Virus record (IMG/VR): IMGVR_UViG_2617270938_000001
Origin: a virus
Taxonomy: Duplodnaviria; Heunggongvirae; Uroviricota; Caudoviricetes
Length of the DNA stretch: 23,613 bases
Strand: one strand, 5' to 3'
The notes below the pieces were generated by a model. It searched no databases, was not told where the DNA came from, and was given only the letters and a program-made list of their open reading frames with translations. Shown in pieces: positions 1,586 through 22,948 of this stretch. A program made the translations under genes and the position numbers. Position 1 is the stretch's first letter. Each line of letters begins with the position of its first letter.

Positions 1586-4057
1586 TTAAAAATCAGCCTG
1601 GTTCGGGATCAGTTTTTGCCAGATAACTGAAACGTATTTTGCCTGGTAACGGGCGTCATCAAGTGCATTATGGCGCTCACCTTCGAATGGAATAGCCGTT
1701 CTGGCATCGAAGTCTATGGCTTTCCCCAGCTCAACGATTGTGCGTACATCGCGATCGTTGTAGTAACGCCACGGGCAGGGGATCCCCTGCCGTTCGTATG
1801 AACGGCGCAAAATCGTGTTGTCGAAGTTGGCTCCATTTCCCCAGACCTGAACAAAAAATTCACCGGAGTTTTCGTCGATAAATTCCCGCAATTGTAACAG
1901 TGCATCATCTAACGGGATTTCATCGGTCATAATGGCAGACTGCGCTTCACGTGATTGCTTCAGCCACCTTTTAATGACGTCACGATCAATGACTCCGCCA
2001 GCAGTTTCCAGATCGATAGTCTTACTAAATTCCGGTCCCATATCTCCGGTTTGCGGATCGAAAAATATTGCACCTATTGAGATAATCGGGGCATCAGGAT
2101 TTTTTCCCATGGTTTCAAGGTCGATCATTAGATGGTCACACGTCCTGCTGGTGGATGTGATAACGTGATGACCGTTCATCGTAATTAAGGGATCTGCCGT
2201 CTCGCCAGTTTCACTATCGCTGGCGTGATCCTGAGCGCTACCAGCATTCTCCTTGTGTGGATGTTCAGCGCCTTCCATTTCCTTCGGATCATTTTCCTGA
2301 ACTTCAACCTGATTCTCTTCATCGAATGTTTCCTGGTATGTTGCGTCACCCATCACCGCGCCACAATCAGGGCAGTTGCCGCCACCGCTTTGACCGCAGG
2401 CGGTGCAGACTTTTTCCGGTTCCTGTTGCGCTACTGGCTCAGGTTGTTTCGTTTCTGGCTCGTTTTGTTGCGTATTTGGGCTGTTTTGTTCCGCTTTCTG
2501 GTCGTTCTGTTCCGATTCTTGCTGGTTCTGGTTTACAGAATCGCGGGTTTCAATCCCCTTTACCCATTTCGGATCATTCGGGTCGCTAATCCCTGCAACA
2601 AATTCTCCGCGAGAGGCAGCAAGCAACTTATCGGCGTCAGGCTGGCTGATATTGGCTGCCTGCATAATTTTGTTTACTTCGTCAGCGGTAACTTTTACCG
2701 GCTCTGGTTGTGCGGTCGTGTCAGATGCACCAGTATTTTGTTGTGAACCTGAGTACGTGCCGTTTTTACGTGCGAAGTATTCCTCTTTTGTGATTTCCGT
2801 AGCTCCCAAGGCTAGTGCTTTTTCCAGACCAGAAAGTTTGTTTGCGCGACCGTATTTTTCGCCATCCTTGTCGGTGAAGAGGAAGTAGAACGGCCCCTCA
2901 CGCTCTACAGATGGTTCGACTTCCACTTTGCATTCGGTTTTTTCGTTGCCCGGAATTGCCGTTTCCACTGCATCAGTTTCTGGTACTGGCGACGAGAGAG
3001 TATCAGTTGCGCTCTGATTTCTTCCTTCATCTTCAAACACGCCCTTTGTAGTCAGGTATTCAGTAATGTATTTGTTCAGTGCCACAGGGTCTTTGTGAAT
3101 GTCGATCGGACGTTCACGGACAAGGCCAAAAATAGTCTGGCGGTCGTAGCGAAGGGCATCAGGCTGTTTGCGCATTGATGCCGAGATACGCTTCCAGTCT
3201 TCGCGGTCGTTGTCGATAACTTCATTTTTTGCCCAGCGATGGATGCTGCCGTCAATGTTTCCGGCATCCACATCACCAGGCCAGAGAGCGTAGGCCAGTT
3301 CGTCATCCAGTGTTTTCCATGTCTGCTTGTATTCGCGATGAATGGCAGCAATGACCGGGCTGATTTTTCCTGTTGAATTTTCACTGTGCTGTTGATTGGT
3401 TCTGGCGCGGGCGAGATCAACAACAGACGTGTATTTTCCGGTTTCCTTGCGTTCACCTTCGCGACGTTTTTTCCAGATGCGCATCTCTGCCTGAATTTCG
3501 GGCCATTTGGCACCAGGCTTACATTTATGCTTAACCCACCCGATGGCATGCAGCTTAAGCTCCGGATACATGGCGTTAACTTCTGGCATTTTCATCAACG
3601 CTTCAACGATATGTCCGTCGAATGTTGCCATGTCTTCCTGCAACAATTCCTGTGCGCTAATAACCATATCAACGGTGATGTTTTCACATGTGTCGAACTT
3701 AACCATGACAGCGTTCTGTACTTCAGGGGCCAGCTTGTCAAAAGTGACGTTCATCGGATCGGATTCAGTCTCAACCGGGACAAAGGAAGCAGACTCCTCA
3801 TCCCAGCGGTTTTCCTGCATATATTCAGCATCCCAGGAATCGAGGGCAGGGCGGGGTATACCGGGTTTATCCTCGCAGACAAGAAATTTATAAGCGCAGT
3901 CCTGAGCAGCCGGATAATGCTCCAGGAATTGCCAGTGAAATTTTGCGCGGGCGCGACGTTCATCACCGGCTTCAATGGCAGTGGCTACAGCGACGGCACC
4001 TTCTTCCTTTATTGCCTGTTCGTCCGGAATGGCGGCGCAAATAAAGACTTTACTCAT
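1586..4057 (-). CDS. exodeoxyribonuclease VIII-like protein with C-terminal DEDDh (DnaQ-like) 3'-5' exonuclease domain
   Basis: 823-aa ORF. C-terminal ~180 aa has exo motifs (MIDLETMG..., WGNGANFDNTIL, HNALDDARYQAKY). Central Cys4 ribbon CTACGQSGGGNCPDCG and a Q/E/P-rich low-complexity linker. GAGG SD upstream of the ATG at 4057. Confidence 0.8.
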   Translation of the reverse strand: MSKVFICAAIPDEQAIKEEGAVAVATAIEAGDERRARAKFHWQFLEHYPAAQDCAYKFLVCEDKPGIPRPALDSWDAEYMQENRWDEESASFVPVETESDPMNVTFDKLAPEVQNAVMVKFDTCENITVDMVISAQELLQEDMATFDGHIVEALMKMPEVNAMYPELKLHAIGWVKHKCKPGAKWPEIQAEMRIWKKRREGERKETGKYTSVVDLARARTNQQHSENSTGKISPVIAAIHREYKQTWKTLDDELAYALWPGDVDAGNIDGSIHRWAKNEVIDNDREDWKRISASMRKQPDALRYDRQTIFGLVRERPIDIHKDPVALNKYITEYLTTKGVFEDEGRNQSATDTLSSPVPETDAVETAIPGNEKTECKVEVEPSVEREGPFYFLFTDKDGEKYGRANKLSGLEKALALGATEITKEEYFARKNGTYSGSQQNTGASDTTAQPEPVKVTADEVNKIMQAANISQPDADKLLAASRGEFVAGISDPNDPKWVKGIETRDSVNQNQQESEQNDQKAEQNSPNTQQNEPETKQPEPVAQQEPEKVCTACGQSGGGNCPDCGAVMGDATYQETFDEENQVEVQENDPKEMEGAEHPHKENAGSAQDHASDSETGETADPLITMNGHHVITSTSRTCDHLMIDLETMGKNPDAPIISIGAIFFDPQTGDMGPEFSKTIDLETAGGVIDRDVIKRWLKQSREAQSAIMTDEIPLDDALLQLREFIDENSGEFFVQVWGNGANFDNTILRRSYERQGIPCPWRYYNDRDVRTIVELGKAIDFDARTAIPFEGERHNALDDARYQAKYVSVIWQKLIPNQADF

Positions 4058-4526: not shown

Positions 4527-5087
4527 TATCGCGTCCTCAACAATGAATTTTGTGATGCGGTGCCTGGTGCCTCCAGGTGACGTTAACCAGTTAACAATTA
4601 ACGCCGGATACAGAGAATCCACCCATAACACTGTTTTTGGTTTTAACTGTTCCGCGTGCGCTCAGCCGCATTCACCACATCACAAAATTCACTTTAAAAA
4701 GGGCGGCAGAGCAGTCACGGAGTAAAACTGATACCGCCAAACGTCACCAGAAAATTGATAACAGAGGGCGTTGCAGCGGGGTTGTCACTTAAGCGTATGG
4801 TCAACCTGACAACCCGGTGTCCTCAACGGGGAAGGAATACCCCCGCCATACTTACCGCCGCGCCATTTCGCGGAGTGCCACAACCGGAAGCGCACGGTCG
4901 ACGAAAATTTAACGACAGGCTATCTATGAACCAACAACTTCGCCGTGTGCTTTCGCGTTATGCCCTGACTTTTCAGGGAAATATCCTTTCAGTAAACTGT
5001 CAGTGCCGGATGCTCACCCGTGTCCGGCGCACGCACTCCACCTCACCCGTGGAGAACTCCTTAATCACCAACCCTCAGGAGGGTGAA

Positions 5088-5363
5088 ATGTCGACTGAAA
5101 ATGATGAAATCATTAACTCCCTGATACGCCAGATTAATAATTTTGATAAAGCATTGCAACATGCTGCGGCGCGTAGTGATATAACTCTTTTAGCAATTTC
5201 ATTTCTTGCATCTGTTATGGATAAAAATGAAGTCGTACGACAGAGTCTTGTTGATTATATCGACTCGCTTCAACCCGGCACTTTCAATCATGAGAGCTTC
5301 AATCATGAGAAAGAGCATGTTAAGTCTGTAATTAATTCTCTTATTTTGAATCAAAAGAATTAA
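5088..5363 (+). CDS. hypothetical protein (91 aa) on the opposite strand inside the leftward operon, AT-rich (moron-like)
   Basis: Strong SD AGGAGGG 4 nt before ATG 5088 (MSTENDEIINSLIRQINNF...). Low-GC segment. The upstream part of ORF 4755..5363 has no SD and looks like run-in. Confidence 0.5.
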   Translation: MSTENDEIINSLIRQINNFDKALQHAAARSDITLLAISFLASVMDKNEVVRQSLVDYIDSLQPGTFNHESFNHEKEHVKSVINSLILNQKN

Positions 5364-10731: not shown

Positions 10732-10942
10732 AAACGGTTTGCGGGAAAAGGAGAGTTAAGTAGAATTGCAGCGGGTGCTTGAGGCTATCTGTCTCAGGCA
10801 TGAACACCAAAAGGCAGATAGAGAAAAGCCCCAGTTAACATTACGCGTCCGGCAAGACGCTTAACATTAATCTGAGGCCATATCTATGCTCTACACACGT
10901 AGGTTAGCCTCTTACGTGCCGAAAGGCAAGGAGAAGCAGGCT

Positions 10943-11098
10943 ATGAAGCAGCAAAAGGCGATGCTAATCGCCCTGATCGTCATCTGTTTAACCGTCATTG
11001 TGACGGCACTGGTAACGAGGAAAGACCTCTGCGAGGTACGAATCCGAACCGGCCAGACGGAGGTCGCTGTCTTCACAGCTTACGAACCTGAGGAGTAA
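10943..11098 (+). CDS. hokD: Hok/Gef-family type I toxin (51 aa; matches my recollection of E. coli HokD/RelF)
   Basis: MKQQKAMLIALIVICLTVIVTALVTRKDLCEVRIRTGQTEVAVFTAYEPEE. AGGAGA SD 8 nt upstream. An in-frame upstream extension from ATG 10886 gives a 70-aa mok-like ORF. Confidence 0.9.
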   Translation: MKQQKAMLIALIVICLTVIVTALVTRKDLCEVRIRTGQTEVAVFTAYEPEE

Positions 11099-12603: not shown

Positions 12604-12978
12604 ATGCTCATAGATTTGGTTTTACCTTACCCGCCGACGGTGAACACTTACTGGCGACGCCGTGGCAGCACATATTTTGTATCAAAAGCCGGGGAGCGTT
12701 ATCGCCGGGCAGTGGCGCTTATTGTTCGCCAGCAGCGGCTGAAATTAAGCCTGTCCGGAAGGCTGGCGATAAAGGTGATTGCAGAGCCACCGGATAAGCG
12801 TCGTCGCGACCTGGACAATATCCTGAAAGCACCGCTGGATGCGCTGACGCATGCGGGAGTGTTAATGGACGATGAGCAGTTTGATGAAATCAATATCGTT
12901 CGTGGTCAGCCAGTATCTGGTGGACGTCTGGGGGTGAAGATTTACCCCATAATGCATGAAGAGCAGGTCAAAAAATGA
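12604..12978 (+). CDS. rusA: Holliday junction resolvase RusA
   Basis: 124 aa with PPTVNTYWRRRG and RRRDLDNILKAPLDAL, matching the RusA motifs I recall (PPSNNRYYR... / RRRDLDNLQKA...). AGAGG SD. Confidence 0.85.
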   Translation: MLIDLVLPYPPTVNTYWRRRGSTYFVSKAGERYRRAVALIVRQQRLKLSLSGRLAIKVIAEPPDKRRRDLDNILKAPLDALTHAGVLMDDEQFDEINIVRGQPVSGGRLGVKIYPIMHEEQVKK

Positions 12979-13796
12979 AACTGGAAGATTTACCGAAATA
13001 CTACTCCCCAAAATCCCCCGGCCTGACTGATGCATCGGCCTCAACGTCGAAAGATGCGCTGAGTATCACTGATGTGATGGCCGCGCAGGGCATGACACAG
13101 AATCGGGCTGAGATGGGGTTTTCTGCGTTCCTTGGGAAAATGGGCATCAGTATGAATGACAGGGCGCGGGCAACAGAATTACTGGCAGATTATGCACTCA
13201 GTCGGTGCGATCGTGTGGCGGCGTTGAGAAAACTTCCGGCAGAAATAAAACCGGTAGTGATGCGCATTATGGCTTCGTACGCTTTTGAGGATTATGCCCG
13301 CAGCGCAGCGAGTAAAAAGCAGTGCCCTTGTTGCTATGGGGAAAAATTTATTGAAAGCATAGTTTTTACAAACAAGGTCCAGTATCCGGATGGTAAGCCG
13401 CCGGTATGGGCAAAGTGTACGAAAGGTGTGTATCCGTCTTACTGGGAAGAATGGAAAAAAGTCAGGGAGGTGGTAAAAGTTGCCTGTCCGGAGTGTGGCG
13501 GAAAGGGTGAGGTTTCCACCGCCTGTAAGGATTGCCGTGGGCGTGGTGTCGCCATTCATCGTGAAGAGTCGGTAAAACGTGGTATGCCTGTTATCAGAGA
13601 CTGCCAGCGTTGTGATGGTCGTGGCTGTGAAAGACTACCATCAACGGAGGCATTTAATGCCATACGCAAAGTGACGAGTGCTATCACGCTTGATACGTGG
13701 AAAAAATCAGTGAAACGCTTTTACGATACGTTGGTGGTTCGGTTTGACATTGAAGAGGCATGGGCGGAGCGGCAGTTAAAGAGGGTAACGCGATAG
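12975..13796 (+). CDS. late-gene antitermination protein Q (82/21/933W type)
   Basis: 273 aa with a Cys-rich zinc motif (CPECGGKGEVSTACKDCRGRG ... CQRCDGRG). Overlaps the rusA stop (ATGA); followed immediately by a promoter/terminator pair. Confidence 0.8.
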   Translation: MKLEDLPKYYSPKSPGLTDASASTSKDALSITDVMAAQGMTQNRAEMGFSAFLGKMGISMNDRARATELLADYALSRCDRVAALRKLPAEIKPVVMRIMASYAFEDYARSAASKKQCPCCYGEKFIESIVFTNKVQYPDGKPPVWAKCTKGVYPSYWEEWKKVREVVKVACPECGGKGEVSTACKDCRGRGVAIHREESVKRGMPVIRDCQRCDGRGCERLPSTEAFNAIRKVTSAITLDTWKKSVKRFYDTLVVRFDIEEAWAERQLKRVTR

Positions 13797-13900
13797 TGTT
13801 GTTGATTTTTCCCGAATCTGTGGTAAATTTGCTCTAACGATGGGCGTTTTATGCCTGACGTTAGAGGATTTTTACACCCCGCCGCCTGGCGGGTTTTTTA
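13797..13900 (+). promoter_or_regulatory. pR'-like late promoter with downstream tR'-like intrinsic terminator (CCCCGCC-GCCT-GGCGGG + TTTTTT at 13877-13899)
   Basis: TTGATT ... TGTGGTAAAT promoter-like elements directly after Q, then a GC hairpin with T-run about 50 bp downstream, the layout of the lambdoid short pR' transcript. Confidence 0.55.
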
Positions 13901-14021: not shown

Positions 14022-14219
14022 ATGCTAAAACAGCAGGATATGACAGAAACCGCCAGAGTGGTGTTTAATGAATTAAGCGTTACCGACCCGGCGACAGTCG
14101 GGGAGATTGCGCAGAATACTTACCTTTCACGCGAACGCTGCCAGTTAATACTGACCCAGCTGGTTATGGCGGGTCTGGCAGACTATCAGTTCGGTTGTTA
14201 CAGACGCCTTCCGCAGTGA
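14022..14219 (+). CDS. small HTH/winged-helix-like DNA-binding protein (65 aa) upstream of the methyltransferase
   Basis: ATG 14022 with AAGGGA SD (MLKQQDMTETARVVFNELSVTDPATVGEIAQNTYLSRERCQLIL...). Terminator GCCTTC-loop-GAAGGC + T7 overlaps the stop (14206-14230). Confidence 0.5.
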   Translation: MLKQQDMTETARVVFNELSVTDPATVGEIAQNTYLSRERCQLILTQLVMAGLADYQFGCYRRLPQ

Positions 14220-14370
14220 AGGCTTTTTTTATTTGTGGTAAATGGGCGGCTGGTGGGTGTTAGGGGCACTCACCAGCCATCTGCTCATGCGTTGGGTTCA
14301 CAAGCAAACCTCAGGCCCACTGCTTTGCGCAAAAGCAGAATGAGCCTATCAGAGACAGGCTTAATGATCC

Positions 14371-15469: not shown

Positions 15470-15540
15470 GGCCCTTTAGCTCAGTGGTGAGAGCGAGCTA
15501 AAGGGCCGGGTCGCTGGTTCAAATCCAGCAAGGGCCACCA
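15470..15540 (+). tRNA. tRNA-Ile-like element with aberrant anticodon arm (probable tRNA pseudogene)
   Basis: Acceptor GGCCCTT/AAGGGCC, D-arm GCTC-AGTGGTGA-GAGC, T-arm GCTGG-TTCAAAT-CCAGC and 3' ACCA are intact. The anticodon-arm region is 12 nt (AGCTAAAGGGCC) instead of 17 and is perfectly complementary to the element's own 5' end. Confidence 0.5.
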
Positions 15541-15882: not shown

Positions 15883-16080
15883 ATTGTCTGGCTGCCGGAG
15901 AATTTGTTAAAAATAACATCGCATGGTGAATCCCCCTCAGCGGCGGGGCATCTGGCAAAGTGTATGATCCAGAGAACATGCAAATTCAGTAGACAGGCTG
16001 AATTTACCGGGAGGCCCCTGGCACCATGCGACAGACAGAAATTAGGCTATACTTCAGCCCCTCTCCGGAGGGGCTTTTCT
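15883..16080 (+). ncRNA. candidate noncoding RNA element A (about 198 nt), paralog of element B, ending in intrinsic terminator AGCCCCTC-TCCG-GAGGGGCT + TTTT
   Basis: Shares blocks with 16352-16545 (ATTGTCTGGC, TTTGTTAAAAA, CGCATGGTGAATCCCCCT, GAATTnACCGGGAGGCnCCnGGCACCATGC, identical terminator hairpin). The overlapping ORFs are on different strands in the two copies, arguing against a shared protein. Confidence 0.45.
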
Positions 16081-16268
16081 GTGCAGGATGTGTCACAGTT
16101 TCCTGAATTCTGAGTACTGTCCTGTTACTCAGGGTGCTATATTTTCTGACGTGATGAAAGTCTGCCGGAAGGCGGAACGTATCGGAAATGACCCAGTAGA
16201 GAAAACGTTGACTCAGATACCGATGCTGAGTTACCGGGAAACCGGCATCACATGACCGCTATCCTTCC

Positions 16269-16292
16269 AGGCTCGCTCCGGCGGGCCTTTTT
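16269..16292 (+). terminator. intrinsic terminator between the two repeat elements (GGCTCGC-TCCG-GCGGGCC + TTTTT)
   Basis: GC-rich stem with tetraloop followed by a T-run; about 30 bp upstream lie TAAAAT and CATAAT -10-like hexamers preceding element B. Confidence 0.5.
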
Positions 16293-16351
16293 ACTGCAGA
16301 AAACAGTTTTCCCGTAAAATGCCACGTTGCTCATAATTCAGGCTGGCGATT

Positions 16352-16545
16352 ATTGTCTGGCCGGCGGGAAGTTTGTTAAAAAATTTCGCATGGTGAATCC
16401 CCCTGTGCGGAGGGGTAATCAGCGAGTAGGTATATGGGATAATCGCGGATTCAGGTGCTGGTACTGAATTCACCGGGAGGCACCCGGCACCATGCAATGG
16501 CACATAGCGCCACTCTCCAGCCCCTCTCCGGAGGGGCTGTTTATA
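16352..16545 (+). ncRNA. candidate noncoding RNA element B (about 194 nt), paralog of element A, same terminator hairpin (16519-16538)
   Basis: See element A. The conserved 5' block, the GGTGAATCCCCCT block, the GGGAGGC block and the terminator are retained while the middle has diverged. Confidence 0.45.
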
Positions 16546-16573
16546 TTGATTTTGTCAGATGTGAGTAAACTCC

Positions 16574-16909
16574 TTATGGACTTTGTTGTTTTAGTCCATA
16601 AGGACATATTTGCAGAGTGCAACGGTTATTAAAGCATTCATTCAATACGTTATCTGTATTTGTAGGGCATTCCTGGCTGTTTTTGATTAAATTCCAGAAT
16701 GTTTTATTGAATGGTACTACGTTGTAAATGGTTACAGGTAGCACTTTGTTATTGAGCATGATACCTGTGTGAGTCAGTGTAAATATACTTTCAGGAGGTA
16801 AGAAAGCATCCGATTGATACCAGATTATTAATTTTACTTTACTCCATATGACTGAAAAAGATATTCCGCATGATGGCTGGATAACTGTATCAATCACAAT
16901 CCACTTCAT
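16574..16909 (-). CDS. IraM/YcgW-family protein (anti-adaptor-like), AT-rich moron on the opposite strand
   Basis: 111 aa, [22 protein letters not shown]...IIWYQS...FLPP...ECP...ICPYGLK, matching my recollection of E. coli IraM from memory (not searched). AAGGAAG SD 6 nt upstream. Local GC is much lower than the flanks; a perfect 11-bp inverted repeat (16584-16615) covers the last codons. Confidence 0.6.
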
Positions 16910-17169
16910 TTAGCTTCCTTGTTTATGCCTTGCTGGTGATGTTCTGAAAAGTATAAATGATATTTTTGAATATAAACCATAGAGCAGAATTATTTTTCTG
17001 ATGTTGTTTATTGTTTATTTAAATGCAGGGTGGTTTATATCTCGTCTTGTAGTTTATCCATGCATATCTGCTTGATGATCAGGTTTCTATTTAAGGTATG
17101 GTTTTGTGTTTTTTCTGTGTTACATGTCTGGTATTTTAAAGAATTATTTTTCAGATGGTGGAAAGAACC

Positions 17170-17358: not shown

Positions 17359-17600
17359 TACTACGTCATCGTACTGGCCCGGCATTCCAGGCCATAAAAG
17401 ACGGTCTGGCAGTGGGACTAAATGCACTGACGCTGACGGATATTACCAAAAATGCAACGTATGGCGTTGAGATAGAAAGTCTGGTGCTGGAGATAAATAC
17501 ACCGGCATCATCATAAAAAGTGAGCCAGTCAAATGGAAGGTATCGTTAAACTCACCGGTAGTGTCAGTGGAGCGTCTGAGACGCTTGCATGAGTTATCAG

Positions 17601-17633
17601 AGCCATCAGTAGTTAACTGGTGGCTTTTTTATT
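17601..17633 (+). terminator. intrinsic terminator-like hairpin just upstream of the holin (AGCCATCAG-tagttaa-CTGGTGGCT + TTTTTTATT)
   Basis: 9-bp stem with one G-T pair followed by a T-run; promoter-like TTGAGA ... GATAAAT about 100-130 bp upstream. Confidence 0.5.
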
Positions 17634-17665
17634 GTTGTCAGCTTCCGGATAACGGGAGACGGGGT

Positions 17666-17881
17666 ATGGACCAGATGGAAAAAATCACAACAGGTGTGTC
17701 ATACACCACGTCAGCGGTGGGAACGGGCTACTGGTTCCTGCAGTTGCTGGACAGGGTTTCCCCGTCTCAGTGGGCGGCAATAGGCGTGCTGGGGAGTCTG
17801 CTGTTTGGGCTGCTGACATATCTGACTAACCTGTATTTCAAAATCAGAGAGGACCGTCGTAAGGCGGCACGGGGAGAGTAA
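17666..17881 (+). CDS. class II holin, phage 21 S21-type pinholin (71 aa) with dual-start motif
   Basis: [71 protein letters not shown], close to S21 as I recall it; Met1 and Met4 give the dual start. The track ORF 17561..17881 includes upstream run-in. Confidence 0.85.
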
Positions 17882-17885
17882 TTCA

Positions 17886-18236
17886 ATGACTCAAAACTAT
17901 GAACTGATTGTGAAAGGGATCCGCAATTTTGAGAATAAAGTTACGGTAACTTTAGCGTTACGGGACAAAAAACGCTTTGACGGTGAAATTTTTGACCTGG
18001 ACATCTCGCTGGACCGTGTTGAAGGTGCCGCGCTGGAGTTTTATGAGGCAGCAGCCAGAATGAGCATCAGACAGGTCTTCCTGGATGTTGCTGCCGGGTT
18101 ATGTGAAGGGGATGAGCAGTCGCCGGAAAAGCGCCCCGTAATTTTAGAGGCGCAGAATGTATGGATAACCTACAAAGGAAAGCTACCGGGAAGAATTACT
18201 GGTTCTCTGAAGACTCCTCCGGAATCACAACCTTAA
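17886..18236 (+). CDS. hypothetical protein (116 aa) embedded between holin and endolysin (YdfR-like position)
   Basis: GGGGAGAG SD; starts 5 nt after the holin stop. Some lambdoid prophages carry a gene at this position, but I cannot verify the family. Confidence 0.55.
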   Translation: MTQNYELIVKGIRNFENKVTVTLALRDKKRFDGEIFDLDISLDRVEGAALEFYEAAARMSIRQVFLDVAAGLCEGDEQSPEKRPVILEAQNVWITYKGKLPGRITGSLKTPPESQP

Positions 18237-18299
18237 GTCACTGACCGGAACAGATAAACCTGTCCGTGGGCAGAAACCGATAAATCCTGATAAATATCC

Positions 18300-18833
18300 A
18301 TGAACACCAAAATCAAATACGGCCTGTCGGCTGCCGTTCTGGCGCTGATTGCCGCTGGTGCGCCTGCGCCTGACATTCTCGACCAGTTTCTGGATGAAAA
18401 GGAAGGTAACCACACCACGGCATACCGTGATGGCGCGGGTATCTGGACCATCTGCCGCGGTGCCATCCTGGTGGATGGCAAACCTGTCGTTCCGGGCATG
18501 AAGTTGTCGAAGGAAAAATGCGACCGGGTTAACGCCATTGAGCGTGATAAGGCGCTGGCATGGGTGGAGAAAAACATCAAAGTGCCATTGAGCGAACCCC
18601 AGAAAGCGGGGATCGCGTCATTCTGTCCGTACAACATTGGTCCCGGTAAGTGTTTCCCGTCGACGTTTTATAAACGAATTAATGCAGGTGATCGCAGGGG
18701 AGCGTGTGAGGCGATTCGCTGGTGGATTAAGGACGGTGGCAGAGACTGCCGTATTCGTTCAAACAACTGCTACGGTCAGGTATCCCGTCGTGACCAGGAG
18801 AGCGCGCTGGCGTGCTGGGGTATCGACAGATAA
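18300..18833 (+). CDS. endolysin, lysozyme (T4-lysozyme / GH24-like) with N-terminal SAR (signal-anchor-release) domain
   Basis: 177 aa. Gly/Ala-rich weakly hydrophobic N-terminus (GLSAAVLALIAAGAPAP) followed by a lysozyme-like core (EGNHTTAYRDGAGIWTICRG ...), as in phage 21 R. Follows the pinholin. Confidence 0.85.
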   Translation: MNTKIKYGLSAAVLALIAAGAPAPDILDQFLDEKEGNHTTAYRDGAGIWTICRGAILVDGKPVVPGMKLSKEKCDRVNAIERDKALAWVEKNIKVPLSEPQKAGIASFCPYNIGPGKCFPSTFYKRINAGDRRGACEAIRWWIKDGGRDCRIRSNNCYGQVSRRDQESALACWGIDR

Positions 18834-18922
18834 GCAGAATATTTTGCTGAAAAATGCGGTTTGCTTACACGGACGGATAACACGAAATCCTGCGAACTGA
18901 CAAAAACTAAGTGAATAAAAGT

Positions 18923-18962
18923 AAAAACCCCGTTTGTTGGCTGCAAGCGGGGTTTTGTGTTT
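18923..18962 (+). terminator. intrinsic terminator-like hairpin inside the lysis cassette (AAAACCCCG ... CGGGGTTTT + GTGTTT)
   Basis: 9-bp stem with a 15-nt loop and U-rich 3' side, between the endolysin and the small TM ORF / Rz. Confidence 0.45.
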
Positions 18963-18992
18963 CCTGACTCTGGAAAAGTCAAAGGAGAAAGT

Positions 18993-19130
18993 GTGTTTGA
19001 TTTTAGCAAACTGATTCGGGAGATTCGAGTGATGGCTGAAAAATTATCCACCTGGAAGTTCATTCTTATCTGGCTGGTGTTTGTGATTATGGCCTCCGGT
19101 TATTTCATCGGTCAGATACGCTGGTGGTGA
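18993..19130 (+). CDS. small membrane protein (45 aa) immediately upstream of Rz; not in the ORF track
   Basis: GTG start with strong SD AAGGAG 5 nt upstream: (M)FDFSKLIREIRVMAEKLSTWKFILIWLVFVIMASGYFIGQIRWW. One TM segment; stop 1 nt before the Rz ATG. Confidence 0.4.
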   Translation: MFDFSKLIREIRVMAEKLSTWKFILIWLVFVIMASGYFIGQIRWW

Positions 19131-19131
19131 A

Positions 19132-19497
19132 ATGAACCGCGTACTGTGCGTGGTCATCATTGCCCTGCTGGTGGCCTGTGGTGCGCTTAGTCTGGGGCTG
19201 AATCATTACCGTGATAACGCCATAACCTACAAAGAGCAGCGCGATAAAAAAGTCAGTGAGCTGGAGCAGGCAAATGCAACCATTACTGATATGCAGCAGC
19301 GCCAGCGTGATGTTGCTGTACTTGATGCCAGATACTCGAGGGAATTAGCCGATGCGAGAGCTGAAAATGAAACTCTGCGCGCTGACGTTGCCGCTGGTCG
19401 TAAGCGCCTGCGGATCAACGCCACCTGCCCCGGTACCCGAACACGGCACTGGTCGGCGTGCAGGTGGACTCGGAACAGTTCGGCAGCCAGCAGGTGA
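19132..19497 (+). CDS. i-spanin Rz, N-terminal ~90 aa only; C-terminus replaced by out-of-frame J sequence (likely pseudogene); no Rz1 found
   Basis: [93 protein letters not shown] closely parallels lambda Rz; similarity is lost at about 19400-19420 where the J frame opens. Confidence 0.7.
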
Positions 19498-22280
19498 GCC
19501 GTAATTATCATCTTCGCGGGCGCATTCTGCAGGTGCCGTCGAACTATAACCCGCAGACGCGGCAATACAGCGGTATCTGGGACGGAACGTTTAAGCCAGC
19601 ATACAGCAACAACATGGCCTGGTGTCTGTGGGATATGCTGACCCATCCGCGCTACGGCATGGGGAAGCGTCTCGGTGCGGCGGATGTGGACAAATGGGCG
19701 CTGTATGTCATCGGCCAGAATTGCGACCAGTCGGTGCCGGATGGCTTTGGTGGCACGGAGCCGCGCATCACCTGTAATGCCTACCTGACCACACAGCGCA
19801 AGGCGTGGGATGTTCTCAGTGATTTCTGCTCGGCGATGCGCTGTATGCCGGTATGGAACGGGCAGACGCTGACGTTCGTGCAGGACCGACCGTCGGATAA
19901 GGTGTGGACCTATAACCGCAGTAATGTGGTGATGCCGGATGATGGCGCGCCGTTCCGCTACAGCTTCAGTGCCCTGAAGGACCGTCATAATGCCGTTGAG
20001 GTGAACTGGATTGACCCGGATAACGGCTGGGAGACGGCGACAGAGCTTGTTGAAGATACGCAGGCCATTGCCCGTTACGGTCGTAACGTCACGAAGATAG
20101 ATGCCTTTGGCTGTACCAGCCGGGGGCAGGCACATCGCGCCGGGCTGTGGCTGATTAAAACAGAACTGCTGGAAACGCAGACCGTGGACTTCAGCGTGGG
20201 TGCTGAAGGGCTTCGCCATGTGCCGGGCGATGTCATTGAAATCTGTGATGATGACTATGCCGGTATCAGCACCGGTGGTCGCGTGCTGGCGGTGAACAGC
20301 CAGACCCGGACGCTGACGCTCGACCGTGAAATCACGCTGCCATCCTCCGGTACCACGCTGATAAGCCTGGTTGACGGTCAGGGTAATCCGGTCAGCGTGG
20401 AGGTCCAGTCCGTCACCGACGGCGTGAAGGTGAAAGTGAGCCGTGTTCCTGACGGCGTTGCCGGATACAGCGTGTGGGGGCTGAAGCTGCCGACGCTGCG
20501 CCAGCGCCTGTTCCGCTGCGTGAGTATCCGTGAGAACGACGACGGCACGTATGCCATCACCGCCGTGCAGCATGTACCGGAAAAAGAAGCCATCGTGGAT
20601 AACGGGGCGCACTTTGACGGCGACCAGAGCGGCACGGTGAATGGTGTCACGCCGCCAGCGGTGCAGCATCTGACCGCAGAAGTCACCGCAGACAGCGGGG
20701 AATACCAGGTGCTGGCCCGCTGGGACACGCCGAAGGTGGTGAAGGGCGTGAGCTTCCTGCTTCGCCTGACCGTGGCAGCGGATGACGGCAGTGAGCGGCT
20801 GGTCAGCACGGCCCGGACGACGGAAACCACTTACCGCTTCACACAACTGGCTCTGGGGAACTACAGGCTGACAGTCCGGGCAGTAAATGCGTGGGGGCAG
20901 CAGGGCGATCCGGCGTCGGTATCGTTCCGGATTGCCGCACCGGCAGCGCCGTCGCGGATTGAGCTGACGCCGGGCTATTTTCAGATAACCGCCACGCCGC
21001 ATCTTGCGGTTTATGATCCGACGGTACAGTTTGAGTTCTGGTTCTCGGAAAAGCGGATTGCGGATATCAGGCAGGTTGAAACCACAGCACGCTATCTTGG
21101 GACGGCGCTGTACTGGATAGCCGCCAGTATCAATATCAGGCCGGGTCATAATTATTATTTTTACGTTCGCAGTGTGAACACCGTTGGCAAATCGGCATTC
21201 GTGGAGGCTGTTGGTCAGCCGAGTGATGACGCATCCGGCTATCTGGATTTTTTCAAAGGCGAGATAGGGAAAACCCATCTGGCTCAGGAGCTGTGGACGC
21301 AGATTGATAACGGTCAGCTTGCGCCTGACCTGGCTGAAATCAGAACATCCATTACGGATGTCAGCAATGAAATCACACAGACCGTCAATAAGAAACTGGA
21401 AGACCAGAGTGCGGCAATTCAGCAGATACAGAAGGTTCAGGTTGATACAAATAATAACCTGAACAGCATGTGGGCTGTGAAGCTGCAGCAGATGCAGGAC
21501 GGACGCCTTTATATCGCGGGTATTGGTGCCGGTATTGAGAACACCCCTGACGGCATGCAGAGTCAGGTGCTGCTGGCGGCAGACAGGATTGCGATGATTA
21601 ATCCTGCGAATGGCAACACAAAGCCGATGTTTGTTGGGCAGGGCGATCAGATATTCATGAACGACGTGTTCCTGAAACGCCTGACGGCTCCCACCATTAC
21701 CAGCGGCGGTAATCCTCCGGTATTTTCCCTGACACCGGACGGGCGGCTGACGGCGAAAAATGCCGATATCAGCGGTAACGTGAATGCGAACTCCGGGACG
21801 CTCAACAACGTCACGATTAACGAGAACTGTCGGGTTCTGGGAAAACTGTCTGCGAACCAGATTGAAGGCGATCTCGTTAAAACAGTGGGCAAAGCTTTCC
21901 CCCGGGACTCCCGTGCACCGGAGCGGTGGCCATCAGGGACCATTACCGTCAGGGTTTATGACGATCAGCCGTTTGACCGGCAGATTGTTATTCCCGCGGT
22001 GGCGTTTCGTGGCGCTAAACATGAGCGGGAGAATAACGATATTTATTCGTCATGCCGCCTGATGGTGAAGAAAAACGGTGCTGAAATTTATAACCGTACC
22101 GCGCTGGATAATACGCTGGTTTATACAGGTGTTATTGATATGCCTGCTGGTCGCGGTCACATGACGCTGGAGTTTTCGGTATCAGCGTGGCTGGTAAATG
22201 ACTGGTATCCCACAGCCAGTATCAGTGATTTGCTGGTTGTGGTGATGAAGAAATCCACAGCAGGTATCACGATTAGCTGA
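19404..22280 (+). CDS. J: tail-tip host specificity protein J, 5'-truncated (C-terminal ~940-960 codons; no upstream J sequence, start codon or promoter of its own)
   Basis: Long high-GC ORF with the size, position (immediately before lom and stf) and motifs expected of lambda J's C-terminal two-thirds. The frame is open from 19404; the track ORF begins at GTG 19458. Head and tail-shaft genes are absent upstream. Confidence 0.8.
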
Positions 22281-22348: not shown

Positions 22349-22948
22349 ATGCGTAAAGTTTGTGCAGCCATTTTGTCCGCAGCCATCTGTCTGGCCGTAT
22401 CCGGTGCGCCTGCATGGGCGTCTGAGCAGCAGGCCACACTGAGCGCAGGGTATCTTCATGCCCGTACGAACGCTCCCGGCAGCGATAATCTGAACGGGAT
22501 TAACGTGAAATACCGTTATGAGTTTACGGACACGCTGGGGCTGATTACGTCATTCAGTTATGCCAACGCTGAAGATGAGCAAAAAACGCATTACAGCGAT
22601 ACCCGCTGGCATGAGGATTCCGTGCGTAACCGCTGGTTCAGCGTGATGGTGGGGCCGTCTGTGCGCGTGAATGAATGGTTCAGCGCGTATGCGATGGCGG
22701 GTGTGGCTTACAGCCGTGTGTCGACTTTCTCCGGGGATTATCTCCGCGTAACTGACAACAAGGGGAAAACGCACGACGTGCTGACCGGAAGTGATGACGG
22801 TCGCCACAGCAACATGTCTCTGGCGTGGGGGGCTGGCGTGCAGTTTAACCCGACCGAATCCGTGGCCATTGATGTCGCTTATGAAGGCTCCGGCAGTGGC
22901 GACTGGCGCACTGACGGTTTCATCGTGGGTGTCGGTTATAAGTTCTGA
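22349..22948 (+). CDS. lom: Lom outer-membrane protein (Ail/Lom/PagC family)
   Basis: 199 aa; signal peptide, GINVKYRYE motif and C-terminus AYEGSGSGDWRTDGFIVGVGYKF, the same C-terminus as lambda Lom as I recall it. Confidence 0.9.
   Translation: MRKVCAAILSAAICLAVSGAPAWASEQQATLSAGYLHARTNAPGSDNLNGINVKYRYEFTDTLGLITSFSYANAEDEQKTHYSDTRWHEDSVRNRWFSVMVGPSVRVNEWFSAYAMAGVAYSRVSTFSGDYLRVTDNKGKTHDVLTGSDDGRHSNMSLAWGAGVQFNPTESVAIDVAYEGSGSGDWRTDGFIVGVGYKF

Follow-up and report, generated by a model that had tools for sequence, protein, structure and literature searches.

Within the late region of a lambdoid prophage, a small gene is read on the minus strand, against the direction of the antitermination and lysis genes that surround it, and it raises the question of which protein it encodes and whether that protein acts on the host. 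The DNA analyzed (referred to below as the window) is the whole 23,613-nucleotide stretch of the Caudoviricetes record IMGVR_UViG_2617270938_000001. An earlier note on this DNA, written from the sequence without database searches, had proposed that the product is a prophage-borne paralogue of E. coli IraM, an inhibitor of RssB that stabilizes RpoS. In E. coli and Shigella, stress tolerance, biofilm formation and virulence traits depend on how much RpoS is present, and IraL is one established reason why RpoS stays high during growth in some pathogenic strains.

The protein was compared with family models and with its characterized relatives. It scores 161.4 bits with the NCBIfam IraM model NF007393 (cutoff 121), its residues 1–110 aligning on profile positions 1–113 of 114; the same model gives 172.6 bits with K-12 IraM. 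Pfam contains no model for it. Identity to K-12 IraM is 62% (66/107 positions, gap-free), and residues 1–78 align without gaps with the crystallized IraM fragment 8twd_A (E = 8e-32, 51/78 identical). Hence the PmrD-like N-terminal beta-barrel formed by IraM residues 1–78 (PDB 8TWD) is recognized in the window protein by sequence only; a single-sequence AlphaFold prediction was uninformative (pLDDT 42) and did not confirm the fold by structure. The IraM-like product anticipated in the earlier note is thus borne out by both the model score and the identity to K-12 IraM. Values of dN/dS against two paralogues were 0.10–0.16, and, as the score with the IraM model is above the cutoff as well, we consider the ORF to be under purifying selection and not a chance ORF.

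A much closer relative is IraL of uropathogenic strain CFT073 (c1429, WP_000871291.1; Hryckowian et al., 2014, mBio, PMC4045071). The two proteins are identical at 110 of 111 residues, the sole change being the conservative I25V, and the coding sequences at 334 of 336 nucleotides (99.4%). Hryckowian et al. (2014; PMC4045071) assigned genes to iraL when identity to CFT073 was at least 95% at the nucleotide level in the coding sequence and at least 96% in the promoter. In the window, identity is 99.4% in the coding sequence and 97% upstream, the prophage context is that of iraL and the mapped transcription start is present. The gene is the already characterized iraL in its usual prophage slot, and nothing about its identity is new. 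The paralogue postulated in the earlier note does exist; what had escaped that note is that it had been named IraL and tested in 2014 (PMC4045071). All that the window adds is a clearly bounded view of the cassette, together with natural variants of its promoter. Databases are inconsistent about the gene: RefSeq labels the product "anti-adapter protein IraM", phage records give "anti-adapter protein", PHROGs places the protein encoded at 16577–16909 in phrog_4407 (243 bits) with "unknown function", and most Stx2-phage records leave a relative, described below, without annotation. The features of the locus and of the prophage are listed in Table 1.

Table 1. Features of the window, with positions in the 23,613-nt sequence
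Feature	Position	Strand	Remarks
DicF antisense RNA	4701–4752	-	Typical of Qin/Rac-like prophage backbones
hok/sok toxin-antitoxin RNA	10773–10948	+	Typical of Qin/Rac-like prophage backbones
Q antiterminator	12975–13796	+	Pfam PF03589
First phage tRNA, damaged	15470–15537	+	Rfam 51 bits; no call by ARAGORN
STnc100 copy, full	15891–16084	+	Rfam RF02076
STnc100 copy, weak/degenerate	16120–16295	+	Rfam RF02076; between the two full copies
STnc100-family sRNA gene, copy 2	16360–16548	+	Rfam RF02076, 132.5 bits (gathering score 47); convergent with iraL
iraL cassette (promoter, gene, hairpin)	16541–17169	.	About 630 bp, 33% GC; flanked by the STnc100 terminator and the DUF1737/nanS-p start codon
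3' hairpin, 12-bp perfect stem, 10-nt loop	16571–16604	-	Covers the last ten codons and the TAA stop
iraL CDS	16574–16909	-	ATG start, 111 aa, stop included; RssB anti-adaptor, IraM/IraL/RssC family
5' leader, 33 nt	16910–16942	-	Start at A 16942, deduced from the 5' RACE data published for CFT073 iraL
Shine-Dalgarno AAGGAAG	16914–16920	-	Read from the sequence; AGGA 6 nt before ATG
-10 element TATACT	16950–16955	-	7 nt upstream of the mapped start; hexamer assigned here from the start position
Probable -35 element TTTATA	16971–16976	-	TTTACA in CFT073; polymorphic position
Candidate PhoP-box-like direct repeat TGTTTA-TTGTT-TATTTA	17005–17021	+	-63 to -79 from the iraL start, reversed relative to iraL
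Truncated nanS-p esterase gene, DUF1737 only, 62 aa	17170–17358	+	Pfam PF08410; divergent from iraL, 260-bp intergenic region
Lysis cassette: P21-type holin, DUF1327/YdfR, lysozyme, truncated Rz	17561–19497	+	Pfam PF04971, PF07041, PF00959, PF03245
Truncated Rz gene	19132–19497	+	Runs straight into J (fusion at about 19460–19500)
Tail-tip protein J, C-terminal 940 aa	19458–22280		Adjoins Rz
lom	22349–22948		After J

The prophage is lambdoid and defective, and iraL occupies a slot flanked by its Q antiterminator and its lysis genes. The plus-strand neighbors of iraL are the Q antiterminator, a DNA methylase, tRNAs, DUF1737, the P21-type holin, DUF1327, lysozyme and Rz, to all of which iraL is antisense, in agreement with the opposite-strand insert in the late region that the earlier note had described. 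It is in this same interval, beyond Q and the tRNA genes, that stx is found in Stx phages. Between Q and iraL, five terminator-like hairpins are found on the plus strand (13878–13893, 14206–14223, 16056–16075, 16269–16288 and 16518–16539), and a terminator scan returned 13 sites when 2.9 were expected.

All terminase and head genes and most tail genes are absent from the prophage, and GC content rises to about 60% around the Rz-J fusion (about 19460–19500). The first of the phage tRNAs has its anticodon arm replaced by CTAAAGGGCC, an inverted copy of its own 5' end; the intact equivalent in strain B-1109 has a CAU anticodon and is annotated as tRNA-Ile by RefSeq versus tRNA-Met by ARAGORN. The damage could correspond either to a real lesion or to an assembly artefact. 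When the whole window was searched against complete E. coli genomes, this exact prophage was absent, and the best match had 87% coverage and 95% identity.

GC content is 34.5% in the ORF, 29.8% in the intergenic region upstream and 32.6% in the cassette as a whole, versus 49.8% in the window, so that the minus-strand ORF stands in an AT-rich block, as the earlier note had it. Alignment with a prophage of E. coli ATCC 11775 that lacks iraL shows that homology ends at the DUF1737 ATG (about 17169) and is back at the GC hairpin (about 16540). The boundaries of the cassette are sharp. On the 3' side of iraL, the intrinsic terminator of STnc100 copy 2 consists of a stem at 16518–16539 followed by a T-run, and 25 nt separate its end from the iraL stop codon. 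The region from the tRNAs to iraL holds all three STnc100 copies, and a near-identical GC hairpin terminator closes each of them. In Stx2 phages, an STnc100 sRNA has been reported by others at a distance of 75 nt downstream from stx2. On the other flank, CFT073 and about half of the iraL loci likewise have a nanS-p gene cut to a 62-aa DUF1737.

The 5' end of the CFT073 iraL mRNA was mapped by 5' RACE to the sequence beginning ACATCACCAGCAAGGCATAAACAAGGAA (PMC4045071). As this published sequence is present in the window, where it puts the transcription start at 16942, iraL has its own sigma-70 promoter; the earlier note had presumed a promoter of its own, and the Shine-Dalgarno sequence that it had pointed out is also there. 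From -100 to the ATG, 129 of 133 positions (97%) are identical to CFT073, and the likely -35 element contains one of the four mismatches. A generic promoter scanner did not call the mapped iraL promoter and proposed another site at 17017–16989, its total count of sites being at the level of chance; because of this miss, the promoter position was taken from the published RACE. TTTATA is a poorer match to the consensus than TTTACA, and expression of the window allele may therefore be lower, the strength of a promoter with this -35 C>T change being inferred only. In strain JJ1886, a -35 point mutation has been described in iraL2, and the authors doubt that this copy is expressed (PMC4045071).

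The alleles were surveyed at 84 loci, the window and CFT073 counted in. The -10 element is invariant, and the transcription start and the leader essentially so, while the bases between the Shine-Dalgarno sequence and the ATG vary. The likely -35 element is TTTACA at most loci, TTTATA at 10 (about 11%, the window included) and carries a 1-nt deletion at 11. Such polymorphism of the -35 element with a fixed -10, start and leader could give rise to strain-specific RpoS levels. One contig is 100% identical to the window allele over 701 bp and, as the allele also accounts for about 11% of the sampled loci, it is in circulation rather than being a lesion private to this prophage. Residue 25 is I at 77 loci and V at 7. 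The arrangement is similarly constant: the slot known from the CFT073 potB prophage, with the STnc100 terminator and DUF1737 on either side, is found at 82/84 loci; the STnc100 hairpin comes 34 nt after the iraL stop at 82/84, and a distance of about 260 nt separates the start of DUF1737/nanS-p from the iraL ATG at 80/84. The esterase itself is full length (616–621 aa) at about 36 loci and 62 aa long at about 37. No stx gene was found within 3 kb of any of the 84 iraL-type loci, which agrees with the published observation that iraL is rarer in STEC (PMC4045071). In a wider search, the 751-bp iraL locus reached a coverage of 80% or more in 1431 of the 5426 complete E. coli genomes (about a quarter), 280 IMG/VR viral contigs encode a relative, and iraL also occurs in E. 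albertii.

Concerning regulation, the direct repeat at 17005–17021 is the sole match to a PhoP box with at most one mismatch in the window. When the 245-bp AT-rich intergenic region is shuffled locally by dinucleotides, 4.2% of the shuffles contain a match of this kind. Both half-sites are unchanged at 84/84 loci, and the paralogue of Stx2c phages has CGTTTA-TTCTT-TGTTTA at the aligned site. We regard this site as suggestive, a lead only and not convincing, and it could equally face the nanS-p side. PhoP control has been published for iraM, not for iraL, and a literature search returned no report of PhoP control of iraL; the PhoP site of iraM is reportedly described in work by Bougdour from 2008. 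Two other inputs have been published: a temperature shift from 23 to 37°C raises iraL mRNA by 1.6 log2, and IraL is higher in a fur mutant. In a scan upstream of iraL, the best Fur-box candidate matched 11/19 positions, a score also reached by shuffled sequences. Since no Fur box stands above chance, the effect of the fur mutation is probably indirect.

The 3' end of the gene contains the perfect inverted repeat that the earlier note had reported; its arms (16571–16582 and 16593–16604) are 12 nt long each, instead of the 11 bp given there. Folded as RNA, the hairpin has -17.5 kcal/mol (z = -5.4), and none of 200 shuffled sequences folds as well. It is iraL-specific, having no counterpart in the Stx2c-type paralogue or in K-12 iraM. 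At about half of the loci an A>G change in one arm converts an A-U into a G-U pair, so that pairing is kept. Covariation support was not obtained at the 84 loci, which are 96–100% identical and have this A>G as their sole common change. Because only GUUUAC follows the stem, the hairpin is not a classical intrinsic terminator, and the terminator scan did not call it. It is probably a 3'-end stabilizer or a weak terminator, a role that is a guess.

The same nucleotides encode the C-terminal tail. The length of 111 aa given in the earlier note is correct; the ending ICPYGLK that accompanied it is that of K-12 IraM, and the window protein continues for four residues (QQSP) beyond it. The Stx2c-phage paralogue and K-12 IraM stop at GRK or GLK, and the TAA stop codon of the former is CAA at the matching site in iraL. 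The QQSP tail therefore looks like the product of an ancestral stop codon that was lost, translation being extended into the hairpin. Just before it, C81, C92, C97 and C102 and the following PYG (16574–16669, residues 81–111) are invariant in IraL, IraM and the Stx-phage type, and recur in relatives of 32% identity from Pseudescherichia and from an Enterobacteriaceae MAG. This cysteine tail may bind a metal or form a disulfide knot; it was removed for the IraM crystal structure, in the report of which zinc is not mentioned (PMC10844676).

The function of IraL has been studied in other strains. Deletion of iraL lowers the log-phase RpoS level in CFT073 and in S. sonnei and shortens the RpoS half-life in CFT073 from about 5 to about 2.5 min; iraL under its native promoter restores RpoS stability, and IraL co-purifies with RssB (PMC4045071). 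[quoted passage not shown] The crystal structure of IraM with RssB defines three clusters of contacts, for which the residues have been listed (PMC10844676). In the window protein, the residues of cluster I, which touches the 4-5-5 face of the RssB N-terminal domain, are 5/5 identical; in cluster II (RssB C-terminal domain) 3/5 are identical, the changes T13S and L75I being conservative; and in cluster III (RssB linker) 2/4 are, with the changes H63N and I64V. This pattern is consistent with the published N-terminal-only binding of IraL.

With these data, we consider it very probable that the ORF is iraL, a prophage-borne paralogue of iraM that forms a self-contained AT-rich lysogenic-conversion cassette and whose product binds RssB and stabilizes RpoS. 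Binding and stabilization are both published for the CFT073 protein, and they would extend by analogy to the window protein, one residue apart from it. IraL would bind the adaptor RssB chiefly through its receiver (N-terminal) domain; RssB being blocked, sigma-S (RpoS) would not be delivered to ClpXP and would accumulate even in growing cells. The cassette has its own sigma-70 promoter, 33-nt leader, Shine-Dalgarno sequence and 3' hairpin, and is inserted, antisense to the late operon, between the STnc100 sRNA gene and the nanS-p esterase gene. In a lysogen, the series of plus-strand terminators should shield iraL from transcription of the late strand, and after Q-mediated antitermination, read-through would be expected to run antisense across iraL.

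This reading has to be weighed against several others. According to the most serious of them, iraL is here an intact but effectively silent passenger that contributes little to RpoS, on account of the -35 C>T change, a probable coating of the 30% GC promoter by H-NS and the decay of the prophage. TTTATA in place of the TTTACA of CFT073 would fit such a loss, as would the doubts voiced in the IraL paper on whether a copy with a point mutation at -35 is expressed (PMC4045071). The prophage is moreover defective (Rz-J fusion, truncated nanS-p, damaged tRNA), and the gene could therefore be intact yet unimportant. Against this stand the ORF, the Shine-Dalgarno sequence, the -10 element, the transcription start and the leader, all of them intact, the circulation of the same allele at about 11% of the sampled loci, and the fact that a truncated nanS-p is equally common beside the CFT073 copy, which is experimentally active. 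We judge a silent passenger quite unlikely.

It is far less probable still that the gene is the orthologue of K-12 iraM, that is, an anti-adaptor of Mg2+ starvation, activated by PhoP and in contact with both domains of RssB. The window protein is 62% identical to IraM (b1160) versus 99% to IraL, and the locus differs, in spite of the common NCBIfam model and of the IraM label in RefSeq. The upstream regions have no resemblance when compared by eye. The genetic contexts differ according to the IraL paper (PMC4045071); BLAST matches of iraL and iraM do not overlap and the pattern of RssB binding is not the same (PMC4045071). The PhoP-box-like repeat upstream would speak for orthology, but it is statistically marginal, reversed and placed at -63 to -79, not over the -35 element. 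We give hardly any credit, either, to the idea that the gene serves the phage, for instance by altering the traffic of ClpXP adaptors in lytic growth. Its place inside the late region and a paralogue beside stx2 might point that way; against it, iraL runs antisense to the late operon, its own sigma-70 promoter already works in log-phase cells that are not induced (PMC4045071), it is kept in prophages no longer able to make particles, and RssB has no known link to phage development. A lysogenic-conversion cassette that raises RpoS in the host hence remains the preferred explanation.

That paralogue is found in phage 2851 (NC_049943.1, 24233–24562; locus L005, positions 5001–5324), in which a 107-aa IraM/IraL-like ORF lies directly downstream of stx2cB and convergent to it. 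An ORF of this type, placed ahead of DUF1737/nanS-p, recurs in about 40 further Stx2c/Stx2a phage records. Its product shares 74% of residues with IraL and 65% with IraM, and the IraM model gives it 160 bits; a literature search found no description of it. The plan of the iraL cassette is shared, with a homologous promoter region, a divergent DUF1737/nanS-p and a convergent STnc100, but, unlike IraL, the paralogue is 107 aa long and has neither the QQSP tail nor the hairpin. There is also a more far-reaching proposal, which we regard as speculative and rather unlikely: besides boosting RpoS constitutively, the cassette would be wired to PhoP, through the repeat at -63 to -79, and to the lytic switch, through Q-dependent antisense read-through over the five terminators and the overlap with STnc100, with the -35 alleles setting strain-specific RpoS levels; by extension, the paralogue on the stx2B side would link Stx phages to RpoS control.

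Among the known systems, the CFT073 locus is the nearest. It has the same promoter, transcription start, leader, 3' hairpin and STnc100 terminator, and the gene order in the CFT073 potB lambdoid prophage is the same, namely Q, tRNAs, DUF3927, iraL, truncated DUF1737 and holin. The window differs from it by I25V, by TTTATA instead of TTTACA at -35 and by two bases between the Shine-Dalgarno sequence and the ATG. The backbone of the prophage and its integrase also differ: the integrase of the window has 376 aa, like that of the B-1109 prophage beside the trp/ompW region, whereas the integrase gene of CFT073 potB is shorter.

K-12 IraM (YcgW/ElbA) belongs to the same family model, and its four C-terminal cysteines and its contacts with the RssB N-terminal domain are kept in IraL, in contrast to the four substitutions at contacts with the C-terminal domain and the linker mentioned above. 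The chromosomal context of iraM is different (next to e14), its upstream region, judged by eye, does not resemble that of iraL, and it is PhoP/Mg2+-induced, whereas IraL is active in log phase. The QQSP tail and the 3' hairpin belong to IraL and not to K-12 IraM. In E. coli ECGI0523, a GTDB species representative, an iraM-type gene near the K-12 position (locus L014, positions 3001–3335) is a pseudogene, frameshifted and with four in-frame stops. RssC of Salmonella is reported to be an IraL/IraM-like anti-adaptor specific to Salmonella, with about 49% reported identity to iraL (ClustalW). IraP and IraD do the same job as IraL, inhibition of RssB and stabilization of RpoS, but have no sequence similarity to it and use other modes of binding to RssB and other signals.
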